From positions 90,001 through 122,000 of the forward strand of contig NC_013201.1 of NCBI RefSeq assembly GCF_000023965.1: a DNA stretch of 32,000 bases, given 5' to 3'. The notes under the pieces were generated by a model. That model made no database searches. It was not told the origin of the DNA and saw only the letters and a list, made by a program, of their open reading frames with translations. Each line of letters opens with the position of its first letter. Positions within the stretch are counted from its first letter, which is position 1. A program made the position numbers and the translations under genes. Below, one piece after another: positions 827 through 5,351 of this stretch. Origin of the DNA: Halomicrobium mukohataei DSM 12286 (lineage in GTDB: Archaea; Halobacteriota; Halobacteria; Halobacteriales; Haloarculaceae).

Positions 827-2446
827 ATGACTGATCCTCGGATTCCCGACCGCTCGGCGGTCGCGAGTCCGCCGCGTCGGGACCTCGATTACCGGACGGT
901 CGACGCCGCGAAGTCCCCGCTCGACGCCGGTGGACAGGCGCTCGTCTACGAGGCGGCCGTCCCGGACGACGAGCCGCCGGATCGGATCGCTCTCAAGGAG
1001 CCCGCAGACCCCGGAACGCTGACCGGTGACGTGGTCGAGACGTTCCTGGAAGAGGCCCGTACCTGGGAGCTGGTCGACCGCCGCGAGCGCGAGAAGCACC
1101 GGTGGGCGGACTCCGAGCACGTCGTCGGCGTGATCGACACCGGCGAGCGCCTGCCCTGGATCGCGATGGAGTACATGGACGGCGGCGACCTCGCCGAGCG
1201 CCTCGACGGCACCGACGGGCTGGCACTGGACGAGGCCCTGTGGGTCGGCGAGTGTGTCTGTCGCGGGATCGAACTCGCCCACAACTACGGGGTCGTCCAC
1301 CTCGACGTCAAACCGTCGAACGTGCTGTTTCGAACCACGCCGGGCGACGCCTGGGACGTGCCGAAGATCGCCGACTGGGGGCTCGCGCGCTCGCTCTCGG
1401 AACGCACGCGAACGATGGAGGGGCTCTCGGTCACCTACGCCGCACCCGAACAGTTCGAACCCGACGAGTTCGGCGATCCGGACATGCTGACCGACGTGTA
1501 CCAGGTCGGAGCACTGGTCTACGCGCTGCTCACCGGTCGCCCGCCCTACGTCGGCAACCGGATGAGCGTCATGCACGATGTCGTGTACGGTGATCCGCCA
1601 GCACCGCCGAGCGCGCACCGCGACGACGCGTCTCCGGCACTCGACGCCGTCGTCTCGACCGCCCTCGAAACGAGCAAGCGCGACCGCTACGACGCCGTTC
1701 AGATCTTCAGGCAGGCACTCAGGGCGGCCCGGACGGATCGCGCGCTCCCGCCGATCGTCGCCGACCGCCTCTCGGCAGACGACCGCTCGCCCCGTGTCGA
1801 CGCGGCCGAGAGCGCCTCCACGGACACTGGTTCGACCGACGCTGCCTCCAGCGACGGCGACTCGACAGACGCCGACACCGGCGACCCCGACGAGGACCTG
1901 ACGTTCAGGGAGCGCGTCGAGCAGATCAGGGCGGAGCGATCCGAGGACGACGGGTCTCCGGCAGACGACGACACGACGAACACCTCTGTGGCGGACGAGT
2001 CTGAGGAGCTGACCTTCAGAGAACGCGTCGAGCAGATCAGGGCGGAGCGGTCCGAGGACGGCGAATCTCCGACGGACGACGATTCGGGGGACAGCGCCGA
2101 AGCGGACGAGAGCGAGCTGGAAGACCTGACCTTCAGGGAACGCGTCGAGCAGATCAGGGAGGAACGCTCCGAGGACGGCGAGTCTACTTCGGACGGTAGT
2201 TCGAACGACAGCGCCGAGACAGACGGGGACACGTCCGGGGACGACGCTGGGGGGAGTGGCGCTGCGCGGACCGACGGCTGGTTCGATCCGGCTGCGTTCC
2301 CCGAGGGCAGCGAGCGGGATCTCGCGGCGGCAATCGCCGGGATCGAGTCCGGTACCGCCGAGCTGTCACTCGCCGACGCGATCGCCAGGTGCGACGATCG
2401 ATCCCTCGCGGCGGCGCTGGCCGCGATGGACGCCCCCGATCACTGA
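827..2446 (+). CDS. Hanks-type Ser/Thr protein kinase with long acidic C-terminal tail
   Basis: Kinase motifs are present: glycine loop GGQALVYEA, IALKEP (VAIK-like Lys), WIAMEYMDGG, catalytic loop HLDVKPSNVLF (from 1298), DWGLAR in the DFG position, and YAAPEQ (APE). The C-terminal ~190 aa is Asp/Glu/Ser-rich with three tandem repeats. Confidence 0.85.
   Translation: MTDPRIPDRSAVASPPRRDLDYRTVDAAKSPLDAGGQALVYEAAVPDDEPPDRIALKEPADPGTLTGDVVETFLEEARTWELVDRREREKHRWADSEHVVGVIDTGERLPWIAMEYMDGGDLAERLDGTDGLALDEALWVGECVCRGIELAHNYGVVHLDVKPSNVLFRTTPGDAWDVPKIADWGLARSLSERTRTMEGLSVTYAAPEQFEPDEFGDPDMLTDVYQVGALVYALLTGRPPYVGNRMSVMHDVVYGDPPAPPSAHRDDASPALDAVVSTALETSKRDRYDAVQIFRQALRAARTDRALPPIVADRLSADDRSPRVDAAESASTDTGSTDAASSDGDSTDADTGDPDEDLTFRERVEQIRAERSEDDGSPADDDTTNTSVADESEELTFRERVEQIRAERSEDGESPTDDDSGDSAEADESELEDLTFRERVEQIREERSEDGESTSDGSSNDSAETDGDTSGDDAGGSGAARTDGWFDPAAFPEGSERDLAAAIAGIESGTAELSLADAIARCDDRSLAAALAAMDAPDH
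1895..2235 (+). repeat. Three tandem coding repeats (periods 111 and 117 nt) inside the kinase tail
   Basis: The unit (D/E)LTFRERVEQIR(A/E)ERSEDG followed by an acidic spacer occurs three times. The Leu codons of the unit sit at 1898, 2009 and 2126. The nucleotide core ttcag(g/a)ga(g/a)cgcgtcgagcagatcaggg is nearly identical in all three. Confidence 0.85.
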
Positions 2447-3276
2447 TCTCGCTCGGCGAGAACCGCCTCGATCCGCAGCATTCGGGCCTCGTCTCGCTCG
2501 ACGCTGACGATCAGAGACGTGGCGACCAGTGCGTCGACCACGTATCGGAGGACGTAGTTCTTCGTCTGGGTCTCCTCGGTCTCCCGCATCGATTCGATCG
2601 TTCCCCGATCGGAGAAGCCGCGTACGAACGGCTCGCTGTCGGTCTCGTATCGGGATCGGAGGTCGACGGCCCCGTCGATCGGGTCGATCCCTTTCTCGCT
2701 GGCGTGGAATCTGACGAGGTCGAACAGCGCGTCGGAGGCGGCCTCGACGACGAGTTGCTGGCGGCCCGCGACGCTGTGTGCGAAGTCGGCCACCCGCTGG
2801 CTGAGCGCCATCGCCGTGGCACCGTTGCCCGGCACCCGGCCGTCGTCGTCGAACTGCTCCGCGATGTCTGCGAGCTGGTCGACGATCTCGCCTTCCACCA
2901 CGTCGAGCCCGTCGGTGATCTCCTGGCGCGTCACGCCGTAAGCCCAGAGCTCGGCGCAGTTGTGCAGGAGTCGCTGGGTCAGGACTCTCGTCTCGCGCGT
3001 GTCGAGGAACGCCGCCACCAGGTCGGGATACTCGTCGGAGAGTGCCTCTGGCTGCTGGTCCGCGATCGCCAGTATCGTCCGCTGAACGTCGTCTCTGACC
3101 ATCATCTCGTCGCGGCTGTAGCCCGCAGCTTCCAGGAGCTTTCGCAGCCGCGGCAGGTACGTGGCGACGACCGCCGGGTCGGACCGGGCCCGCGTCTTGA
3201 ACTGGTCGGCCTCCGCCCGTAACTCCGATGTCGACTTGTCGAAACGGCGCTCCATCTCCGAGTCGAGTCCTGCCAT
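2440..3276 (-). CDS. Hypothetical acidic protein (no family recognised)
   Basis: This is a long ORF with halophile-like acidic composition, whereas overlapping ORFs in other frames are Arg/Pro-rich shadows. The ORF opens at 3303, but the ATG at 3276 (MAGLDSEMERR) is the more plausible start. The 3' end overlaps the convergent kinase gene by 7 nt. Confidence 0.55.
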   Translation of the reverse strand: MAGLDSEMERRFDKSTSELRAEADQFKTRARSDPAVVATYLPRLRKLLEAAGYSRDEMMVRDDVQRTILAIADQQPEALSDEYPDLVAAFLDTRETRVLTQRLLHNCAELWAYGVTRQEITDGLDVVEGEIVDQLADIAEQFDDDGRVPGNGATAMALSQRVADFAHSVAGRQQLVVEAASDALFDLVRFHASEKGIDPIDGAVDLRSRYETDSEPFVRGFSDRGTIESMRETEETQTKNYVLRYVVDALVATSLIVSVERDEARMLRIEAVLAERDQ

Positions 3277-3397
3277 GTGGCCACGACGGCACGCCAGCGT
3301 CAAAACTGTTGAGTCTGCCCGCCTCCGCGGGGTCGCGAATATCTCGAAACAGCGATAGCCGACAGTATAAGCGCCAGTGGGTCGAACGGGACACTCG

Positions 3398-3481
3398 ATG
3401 CCCAGTGCAGCGGACCCTCACGACCTACAGCGCTTCGTCGAGGCACAGGAATCGGTCATCGGGACGGTCAAGCGGGAACTT
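3398..3481 (+). pseudogene. DUF1810-family gene, N-terminal fragment (interrupted by IS element)
   Basis: The ATG at 3398 is preceded by a TATA-like gtataa at 3364-3369. The translation MPSAADPHDLQRFVEAQESVIGTVKREL matches the conserved DUF1810 N-terminus as I recall it (DLQRFV(D/E)AQ ... EL). After 3481 the frame runs into unrelated sequence and stops at 3530-3532. Confidence 0.65.
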
Positions 3482-3578
3482 CCTTATTCAGCGAGGGAGT
3501 CCCGCCGTTCACGGCGGGCGGGAATCGCGTAAGCTCTAGTGACTATCCACCGTTCAATTCCCGGCCTACTCCCAATTA

Positions 3579-3588
3579 TTTATATATA
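3579..3588 (+). promoter_or_regulatory. TATA box for tnpB
   Basis: The sequence tttatatata ends 25 nt upstream of the tnpB ATG at 3613, which is the typical haloarchaeal spacing for a short or leaderless 5' end. Confidence 0.5.
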
Positions 3589-3612
3589 GTTAGTCCCACA
3601 TGTGATGTGTAG

Positions 3613-4830
3613 ATGGAGATTCAGCGTACTGCTGTCGTCAAACTTTCCGTCCCCGACCAGCGGCGCGACGACCTGAAACGAACGATGAACACGTTTCGGG
3701 ACGCTGCACAGCGGTTTGCCGACCGGGGATGGGAAAGAGATGACAATGGGTACGTGATAACGTCGCGCTCTCGACTACAACCGCTCGTCTACGACGACAT
3801 ACGGGACGACACCGGCCTTCACTCAGACTTGACCGTGGCCGCCGTCAACCATGCTGCCGACGCGCTTACCGGCTGTGTAGACAAAATGAAAGCTGGCGAA
3901 CGAACCTCAAAACCTGTGTTCACGTCGAACACGACCGTCTACAACACCAGTGCAATCAGTTACTTCGACGGATACTGTTCGCTGGCCGCTTACGGAAGTG
4001 GGCGTGTTCATGCTGCATACGTCTACCCAGACGACTCGCTCCAGGCCGAATACATGGAGAGTAGCGAGTGGACCAAACAAGGCGCGAAACTCCGATACGA
4101 CCATCAGACCGATACCTACTACTTGCACGTTTCCGTCAAACAGGAACGCGAAGATTCGTTGGAAGAGGCCGAGAGCCGAACAGTTCTCGGCGTAGACCGG
4201 AACGTCGACGGGTATCTTGCTGTCACCAGTACAGGAGCATTCATCGGCAACGCTGACCTACTGAACCACAAGCGCCGCGAGTATGAACGTCGTCGCGCCC
4301 GACTACAACAACAGGGGACGCGAAGCGCACACCTCACGATTCAGTCAATCGGTGACACCTTCGCTAACTGGTCCGAGGACTTTCTACACCAAACGTCGAA
4401 ACGACTGGTGAAAGAAGCCATGTCACGGGGCTGTTCGGTAATCGTGTTCGAGGACTTGGAACAGATACGAGAACGTATCTCGAACGCCTCGAAATTCCAG
4501 CAGTGGGCGTTCCGCGAGTTGAAGCGCCAGACGACATACAAAGCCCGTGCCGAAGGAATCGCTGTCGAATCAGTCCATCCGGCCTACACCAGCCAGCGGT
4601 GTAGTCACGCCGACTGTGGCTTCACTCACGAGGACAACCGCGACAGCGACCAGTTCACCTGCCAGAAGTGCGGCAAAGAGCTACACGCCGACTACAACGC
4701 GGCACGCAACGTTGCACACAGATTCATCCAGAATCGGCTCAAGTCTGGTTCTGGAGGGGCGACCCATCACCTCGCCCTGAAGTCGGGGACAATGAACGGG
4801 AACGGCGACTACTCGCCTTCCACAGTATAG
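3613..4830 (+). CDS. tnpB: TnpB (IS1341-type OrfB), RNA-guided endonuclease family, apparently intact
   Basis: The 405-aa product has RuvC-like triad contexts LGVDRNVDGYLAV (D), VIVFEDLEQIR (E) and HADYNAARNVA (D). A zinc finger CSHADC...CQKCG lies between RuvC-II and RuvC-III. The ORF is uninterrupted. Confidence 0.9.
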   Translation: MEIQRTAVVKLSVPDQRRDDLKRTMNTFRDAAQRFADRGWERDDNGYVITSRSRLQPLVYDDIRDDTGLHSDLTVAAVNHAADALTGCVDKMKAGERTSKPVFTSNTTVYNTSAISYFDGYCSLAAYGSGRVHAAYVYPDDSLQAEYMESSEWTKQGAKLRYDHQTDTYYLHVSVKQEREDSLEEAESRTVLGVDRNVDGYLAVTSTGAFIGNADLLNHKRREYERRRARLQQQGTRSAHLTIQSIGDTFANWSEDFLHQTSKRLVKEAMSRGCSVIVFEDLEQIRERISNASKFQQWAFRELKRQTTYKARAEGIAVESVHPAYTSQRCSHADCGFTHEDNRDSDQFTCQKCGKELHADYNAARNVAHRFIQNRLKSGSGGATHHLALKSGTMNGNGDYSPSTV

Positions 4831-4881
4831 TGGACAGACCGGGAGTCCACCGACAAACCTCGCCGTGAACGGCGAGGTAGG
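4700..4881 (+). ncRNA. Predicted TnpB omega-RNA (reRNA) scaffold plus guide
   Basis: This is placed by analogy only. Characterised TnpB guide RNAs derive from the 3' end of tnpB through the right end, with the guide read from the adjacent flank. The hairpin 4830..4850 and the flank GCCGTGAACGGCGAGGTAGG (4862..4881) would be scaffold end and guide. The 5' boundary is a guess. Confidence 0.35.
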
Positions 4882-5215
4882 TGATTGGATGTGGTTCGTG
4901 TTCCCCCAGGTCGCCGGGCTCGGCCGGAGTGAGATGGCGCAGCGATTCGCCATCGCCTCGCGAGCGGAAGCCGACGCCTACCTGCGCCATCCCACTCTCG
5001 GACCGCGATTGCGTGAGTGTACGGCGATCGTCAACGCCCTCGACGGGCGCTCAGCGAACGACATCTTCGGCTCGCCGGACGATCTGAAGTTCCGGTCGTC
5101 CATGACGCTGTTCGAGACGGTCGCCGACGATCCGACGCCGTTCGCCACGGCACTGGAGCGGTACTACGACGGCGACCGCGATCAAAAGACGCTCGATCTG
5201 CTGGACGACAGCTGA
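4862..5215 (+). pseudogene. DUF1810-family gene, C-terminal fragment
   Basis: AVNGEVGDWMWFVFPQVAGLGRSEMAQRFAI...HPTLGPRLRECT...IFGSPDDLKFRSSMTLF...YYDGDRDQKTLDLL carries the family hallmarks as I recall them (WMWF(I/V)FPQ, GLG, LGxRL, D..K..SS.TLF). The ORF-track start at 4865 is only a GTG inside the frame. Confidence 0.7.
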
Positions 5216-5351
5216 ACGCTGCCTGTGGTGGCAATCTCCGCTCGGAACTGCACGCTGCTCCTTCCTTCGAAGGTAGAACCGGGCACCGACCAGAACGGTG
5301 TGACGGCGCTATGTGGACGTTTTATGCGCACACGGTCGCATACCTTCGGCA

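Follow-up and report, generated by a model that had tools for sequence, protein, structure and literature searches.

The closest described relatives of the element considered here are IS608 of Helicobacter pylori and ISDra2 of Deinococcus radiodurans, insertion sequences (IS) that possess subterminal hairpins but no inverted repeats and insert 3' of a short specific motif without duplication. In IS608, the left cleavage site is located outside of the element, 19 nucleotides (nt) from the hairpin, and the right one inside, 10 nt from the hairpin; both are recognised by the transposase TnpA through base pairing with guides placed just 5' of the hairpins (PMC3201880). Elements of this kind contain a downstream tnpB gene with a guide-RNA scaffold at its 3' side (PMC8612924). 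Haloarchaeal tnpB genes specify omega RNAs or sotRNAs at the 3' end of the gene (PMC4615843, PMC12558985), and TnpB cuts empty donor sites if the guide is provided by the flank of the element (PMC8612924; 10.1101/2023.03.14.532601). Here, a stretch of 32,000 nt, referred to as the window, was analysed, which corresponds to C2:90001-122000 of the Halomicrobium mukohataei genome, consisting of two replicons of 3,110,487 and 221,862 bp. It contains a gene of the DUF1810 family that is a pseudogene in two pieces, with a TnpB element of the IS200/IS605 type between them, the result of an ordinary insertion.

In its overall design, the element resembles IS608 and ISDra2. Subterminal hairpins without inverted repeats are present, and insertion 3' of a short motif without duplication could be deduced. 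The left cleavage site would be positioned outside, at a distance of 18 nt from the left hairpin on its 5' side, and the right one inside, 8 nt 3' of the right hairpin, compared with 19 and 10 nt in IS608. Reading of the cleavage sites by a guide 5' of the hairpin appears to be shared as well, as judged from covariation, and the RNA at the 3' side of tnpB is predicted to be omega-RNA-like. A preliminary description of the window had recognised this IS608-like geometry of a TnpB-only element of the IS200/IS605 type, co-oriented with DUF1810, and the left hairpin that it placed about 19 nt inside the left junction was confirmed, with a distance of 18 nt. Unlike IS608 and ISDra2, the element lacks tnpA and resides in an archaeal host, and its target motif is C-Y-A-Y, GCCAC in the lineage of the window, instead of TTAC or TTGAT. 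Moreover, in contrast to the textbook mechanism, which is seamless, the copy in the window has lost the left cleavage motif together with 23 nt of flanking DNA.

The ends of the element were determined by comparison with a sister copy on the chromosome (C1:1599645-1601047, minus strand), which spans exactly positions 3483..4885 of the window with 98% identity (26 differences). The sister copy disrupts a universal-stress-protein-like gene, and its flanks are unrelated to those in the window on both sides. In two genomes of the same genus (G002 and G003), the corresponding site is empty and the flanks are contiguous (1497|1498). The insert therefore is exactly CTTATTCAG...GGTAGGTGAT (CTTATT...GGTGAT), which follows ...GCGCCAC, with nothing duplicated and nothing lost. 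The right ends of over 15 related elements, found in other genera of the family, finish with TGAT or TGAC, and their flanks diverge beyond this point; like the sister copy, all of them continue through ...GGTAGGTGAT, that is, to position 4885. The absence of terminal inverted repeats and of a target duplication, which had been noted before, was confirmed. By these sequence comparisons, the boundaries are placed at 3483 and 4885. Another candidate for the target motif, TTAT at 3484-3487 with an element start at 3488, was rejected, since the empty site of the sister copy puts CTTAT within the insert.

Analysis of the DUF1810 gene revealed that more than the integrity of the reading frame is affected. 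The region 3398..3481 codes for the N-terminus, MPSAADPHDLQRFVEAQESVIGTVKREL, as described previously; it is identical to orthologues from the same genus or differs in one residue (L006, L007). Its reading frame continues into the element and ends with a stop codon at 3530-3532. The 3' fragment matches the Pfam family PF08837 (DUF1810) with 156.8 bits at profile positions 30-136 and is 94-97% identical to two orthologues of the same genus. Five intact orthologues, two of them from the same genus, contain the sequence ...VKREL-RSG(R/Q/H)KR(S/T)H-WMWFVFPQ..., with D replacing the first S in one case. On the DNA level, the orthologues show the order GGGAACTCC-GGTCGGGACGGAAACGGAGCCAC-TGGATGTGG, and the window shows GGGAACTTC, the element, and TGGATGTGG. 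When 3483..4885 was omitted and the remaining sequence was aligned to plasmid pLC1Hm-01 and to G002, a single gap of 23 nt was obtained, with near-identity elsewhere. The missing block, which is GGTCGGGACGGAAACGGAGCCAC or the string shifted by 1 nt in the orthologues, contains the target motif GCCAC. The eight codons lost from the window (RSGRKRSH) are present in all five orthologues. Apart from this, no other lesion of the gene was detected in comparison to the intact orthologues. An assembly error as the source of the missing 23 nt was ruled out, because an independent assembly, the plasmid record of H. mukohataei JP60, is 100% identical to the locus over 2401 bp.

With 23 nt missing beside the element, excision leaves a frameshift, even if it is precise, and DUF1810 is not restored: the predicted product after removal of the real element of 1403 nt is KRELLDVVRVPPGRRARPE, followed by a stop codon. 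No single open reading frame in the window covers the whole DUF1810 domain, as the gene is split by 1403 nt and lacks the 23 nt. DUF1810 is thus a dead gene at this locus, an irreversible pseudogene.

To define the target motif, 33 distinct left ends of related elements were compared. Directly before the element start CT(T/A)... all of them contain the motif C-Y-A-Y, which is (G/C)CCAC in the lineage of the window; the third position is A in 31 of them. The first and the last base of the tetranucleotide R-G-A-R in front of the left hairpin covary with motif positions 2 and 4, being Watson-Crick compatible in 31/33 and 32/33 cases, respectively, and all four combinations were observed. As far as can be deduced from covariation, this is pairing between guide and cleavage site of the IS608 type. 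In the related right ends, the final T/C of the element covaries with A/G at 4857, just before the hairpin, which may reflect one evolutionary event. The left hairpin is conserved to about 90% in many related elements, and both end hairpins share the core CGCCGTnnACGGCG, which is kept across related copies. In intact DUF1810 alleles, GCCAC is found at the His codon just before WMWF and directly precedes TGGATGTGG, which starts at the base after 4885. The right joint is therefore canonical. GCCAC occurs at a frequency of 0.0017 of the positions in the genome (0.17%). Integration 3' of a specific short motif without duplication was thus observed for the empty site of the sister copy, for the 33 left ends, and for the right joint as seen in the orthologues. 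In the left flank of the copy in the window, CTTC is present in place of CCAC found in the relatives, and the motif is gone.

From these analyses it appeared probable that a non-autonomous element of the IS1341 type was inserted in canonical fashion 3' of GCCAC and that 23 nt of its left flank were lost. The TnpB-only element would have entered DUF1810 by single-strand 'peel-and-paste' directly 3' of GCCAC, and the 23 nt comprising the motif and the eight conserved codons would have been deleted at or after insertion. The end of the deletion would be the left cleavage point of the Y1 transposase, or 1 nt off, which suggests an involvement of this enzyme. The order of events and a role of TnpA in the deletion are what we infer from this arrangement. 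Several points weigh against it. Position 3481 is T in the window and C in both close orthologues, and the exact endpoints of the deletion are therefore ambiguous by 1-2 nt. A 24-nt exact pattern of the right junction gave no match in the genome and metagenome collections, so that no strain or metagenome with the same insertion beside an unaltered left flank came to light. TnpA is a presumed author of the deletion. Finally, the copy in the window might still be cleavable, as judged from its flank: CTTC retains motif positions 1 and 4 and allows a wobble at position 2, and among the 33 natural left ends, two likewise have no A at position 3.

Other histories of the locus have to be considered. 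In the preliminary description, an element extending from 3482 to 4861 was thought to split DUF1810 cleanly, so that excision would restore an in-frame gene with AVNGEVG as native linker. The 1380 nt of this element indeed keep the frame, and a spacing of seven residues from EL to (H/D)WMWF is that of the family. The residues themselves differ: the orthologues have RSG(R/Q/H)KR(S/T)H and not AVNGEVGD at the proposed join, AVNGEVG(D) is encoded by the right-end hairpin (4858-4877) and the 8-nt tail and is left unaligned by Pfam, and the join is apparently in frame because 1403-23 equals 1380. The left junction had been placed correctly within 1 nt (3482 instead of 3483). The right junction, assumed at 4861|4862, is located at 4885|4886 according to the sister copy and all related right ends, and this misplacement by 24 nt led to the wrong conclusion on reversibility. 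The assignment of 4862..5215 to DUF1810 holds for 4886..5215, and 4862-4885 is the right end of the element. The hairpin at 4830-4850, suggested to end about 10 nt before the right junction, turned out to be weak (z -1.26), with its bases paired differently in the covariation model; the conserved right hairpin is the one at 4858-4877. By both criteria that the preliminary description had named, the ends of other copies and the match of intact orthologues across the join, a clean split with excision restoring the gene is refuted.

The insertion might also have occurred in mirror order, with the element first entering 3' of a weak CT(C/T)C at 3482 and 23 nt on its right being removed later, for example if TnpA had linked the right end with the perfect GCCAC that follows 23 nt downstream. 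The present left flank CTTC fits the motif skeleton C-Y-N-C, the deleted block has a pseudo-site at one edge and a perfect site at the other, and joining of the 3'-OH of the right end to DNA cut 3' of a target motif is normal integration chemistry (PMC3201880). However, C-Y-N-C is found at about 4% of the genome positions, which renders the resemblance of CTTC weak evidence, and the first insertion would have occurred at a motif without the A present in 31/33 natural left flanks and would have to be followed by a second event. Mirror order is therefore less parsimonious than one canonical insertion with a 5/5 match to GCCAC of the lineage, and we consider it improbable. Even less can be said for a 23-nt deletion older than the element, which would have landed exactly on the scar of an existing DUF1810 pseudogene. 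No direct point favours this sequence of events, the insertion point would have to coincide to the base with the deletion junction and to adjoin a non-consensus motif, and a gene that is otherwise 94-97% identical to intact orthologues without another lesion indicates recent inactivation; it is very improbable. The Y1 transposase itself could have left the 23-nt loss as its footprint, a possibility regarded as rather doubtful. Such a footprint could arise by abortive cleavage at the left end, trimming of the freed 3' end of the flank, and resealing onto the protected 5' end of the element, or by a TnpA-made joint between the pseudo-site CT(C/T)C and the real site, GCCAC. Replication slippage is not favoured as the cause of the deletion, since the microhomology at its ends comprises 1 nt only. 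Cleavage by TnpB was rejected by reasoning: TnpB cuts the guide side of an empty site, that is the right flank, and with a sister copy as repair template the left flank would not be lost.

Table 1. Features of the interrupted DUF1810 gene and of the TnpB element in the window
Feature	Position	Strand	Description and basis
DUF1810 5' fragment	3398..3482	+	28 codons (M...KREL) and one base; list of open reading frames, orthologues
Left junction, site of 23-nt loss	3482..3483		alignment to pLC1Hm-01 and G002
TnpB-only IS200/IS605 (IS1341-type) element	3483..4885	+	1403 nt; sister copy and related ends
Left guide GGAG	3496..3499	+	R-G-A-R tetranucleotide, one base 5' of left hairpin foot
Left subterminal hairpin	3501..3518	+	stem CCCGCCG, loop TTCA, stem CGGCGGG; DNA fold z -2.4
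TATA-box-like TTTATATA	3580..3587	+	about 26 nt upstream of tnpB ATG; read from sequence, both copies
tnpB	3613..4830	+	open 405-codon frame, co-oriented with DUF1810
Omega-RNA-like structured RNA (predicted)	4712..4885	+	overlaps tnpB 3' end, reaches right end; covariation
Right subterminal hairpin	4858..4877	+	8-bp stem; DNA fold z -4.25; ends 8 nt before true end
Right cleavage sequence TGAT	4882..4885	+	last bases of the element; related right ends TGAT/TGAC
DUF1810 3' fragment	4886..5215	+	WMWFVFPQ... to stop; Pfam PF08837
Putative omega-RNA guide template (right flank)	4886..4905	+	matches intact DUF1810 directly 3' of GCCAC

The tnpB gene of the element (Table 1) looks intact, as had been proposed. 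Its product contains the RuvC residues D194/E280/D360 (D/E/D) and a zinc ribbon of four Cys, and the alignment with the best solved matches, Cas12f/TnpB structures, includes GVDRN, FEDL, HADYNAARN, and the four Cys. PF07282 is matched with 76 bits (cut-off 26.3) and NF040570 (guided_TnpB) with 176 bits (cut-off 100), while the match to PF01385 is below the cut-off (26.8 vs 30.5). The NCBIfam label for the gene between the DUF1810 fragments is RNA-guided endonuclease TnpB family protein. The proteins from the window and from the sister copy share 396 of 405 residues. Among the 23 coding differences, 12 are synonymous and 11 non-synonymous, changing nine residues, and a clear signal of selection between both copies is therefore not apparent. 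Seven derived substitutions in the sister copy (L002) are clustered within 21 nt in the region of the RuvC-III motif (equivalent to 4668-4688 in the window), and the remaining 19 differences of this copy are scattered over about 1380 nt; the cluster resembles a short gene-conversion tract with another tnpB as donor. The sequence TTTATATA is likely the element's own archaeal promoter, in which case tnpB expression would not need read-through.

A conserved structure is predicted for the region overlapping the 3' end of tnpB. RNAalifold analysis of 15 related right ends yielded 50 pairs, of which 23 show compensatory changes. A search of 3300-5300 against Rfam gave no relevant family, but only a chance match to a long non-coding RNA (E 0.64). 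The predicted structure fits the haloarchaeal omega RNAs or sotRNAs (PMC4615843, PMC12558985). As with the IS1341-type tnpB genes of Halobacterium salinarum and their 3' sotRNAs, a stand-alone haloarchaeal tnpB is found together with a predicted structured RNA over its 3' end and a right hairpin; unlike these sotRNAs, the RNA of the element is known from its predicted structure and has no Rfam match. By analogy to known TnpB biology (PMC8612924), the flank 4886..4905 would serve as guide. In the orthologues, GCCAC is followed by TGGATGTGGTTCGTGTT, which matches the flank in 17/17 positions before one mismatch occurs. The predicted guide to intact DUF1810 next to GCCAC agrees with the arrangement known from transposon retention by TnpB (homing) in the IS200/IS605 family, and TnpB and its putative omega RNA may be active against intact DUF1810 alleles. 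Different from the homing model, the motif is absent in this genome, so that an excision scar at this locus could not be recognised, which would leave intact alleles of foreign or ancestral origin as the only targets. Taken at face value, tnpB, the TATA-like promoter, and the omega-RNA-like 3' structure all look intact.

A gene for a Y1 transposase (PF01797) was detected neither in the window nor elsewhere on its replicon, and the element, having none inside, is non-autonomous. That tnpA is absent from the window and that a transposase would have to be supplied in trans had been stated before, and the search of the whole genome has now revealed three PF01797 matches, all on the chromosome. The tnpA gene at C1:2535659 is intact and matches the IS200/IS605 transposase model; its product contains DHVHILF, which is the HUH motif, and a catalytic-type Tyr in a C-terminal motif. 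It is part of an element with tnpA and tnpB, the left end of which is about 90% identical to that of the element in the window and the right hairpin of which has the core CGCCGTTCACGGCG in common with it. Judged by these ends, its TnpA would be the obvious candidate for mobilisation in trans. The elements at C1:1856023-1857380 (L003, tnpB only) and C1:2535485-2537120 (L049, tnpA and tnpB) belong to one TnpB lineage, about 30% identical to TnpB of the window, and the left ends of both are about 90% identical to that of the element in the window. Such similar left ends despite this low TnpB identity indicate that one transposase may service several TnpB lineages.

The copy in the window is probably poorly mobilisable or immobile, which is suggested by the left cleavage motif, now CTTC, and by the loop of the right hairpin. 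This loop (4866-4869) is TGAA in the window; in the sister copy (L002:1517-1520) and the closest relatives, it is TTCA, the exact reverse complement. Since the stem is a perfect palindrome, the change of two bases is an exact inversion of the loop. Comparison of the copies identifies TGAA as the derived state, and the inversion suggests hairpin-mediated template switching. The TGAA loop may impair binding of TnpA.

Larger changes of hairpin loops were seen in other elements. One related element (L014:1435-1560, 2864-2928; G057) carries the same insert of about 45 nt with two hairpins in the loops of both end hairpins, and in other lineages (left ends in L013, L017, L024) different inserts of 50-70 nt are located at the same position of the left-hairpin loop. 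A third empty site was sought for a copy in G074 that is 87% identical, but homology to the flank in the relatives breaks off about 100 nt short of the element and passes into another repeat, so that this copy was uninformative. A 34-nt stretch in its left flank (L012:1405-1438) is encountered again, at 85-91% identity, in numerous genomes belonging to several families, and probably represents a small repeat or the terminal part of a different mobile element.

The syntenic plasmid pLC1Hm-01 harbors an intact, annotated DUF1810 gene for a protein of 145 amino acids, flanked by the same TCP-1 fragment and restriction endonuclease; in the plasmid record of JP60, only tnpB, the TCP-1 fragment, and the restriction endonuclease are annotated at the locus. 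The TCP-1 fragment, encoded at 2440-3303 on the minus strand of the window, is a protein of about 280 amino acids that matches the TCP-1/cpn60 chaperonin profile at positions 349-473 only. It is conserved and annotated on both Halomicrobium plasmids and looks like a stand-alone thermosome fragment, not like a recent pseudogene.

With these results, the ends of the element are defined to the base, and the claim that the disruption can be reverted by excision has to be dropped from the annotation. For a haloarchaeal TnpB lineage, a target motif derived from sequences is now available, namely C-Y-A-Y, with GCCAC as the form used by the lineage of the window, which is backed by covariation of the guide. 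The loss of flanking DNA up to the point of cleavage by the transposase and the inverted right loop are minor curiosities of a single case, anecdotal and no evidence for a new kind of system; they hint at ways by which such elements become immobilised. If the loss of 23 nt were indeed a footprint of TnpA, transposition of the IS200/IS605 type, normally called scarless, could delete adjacent DNA including its own target motif, and a still-armed pair of TnpB and guide would be locked in place.

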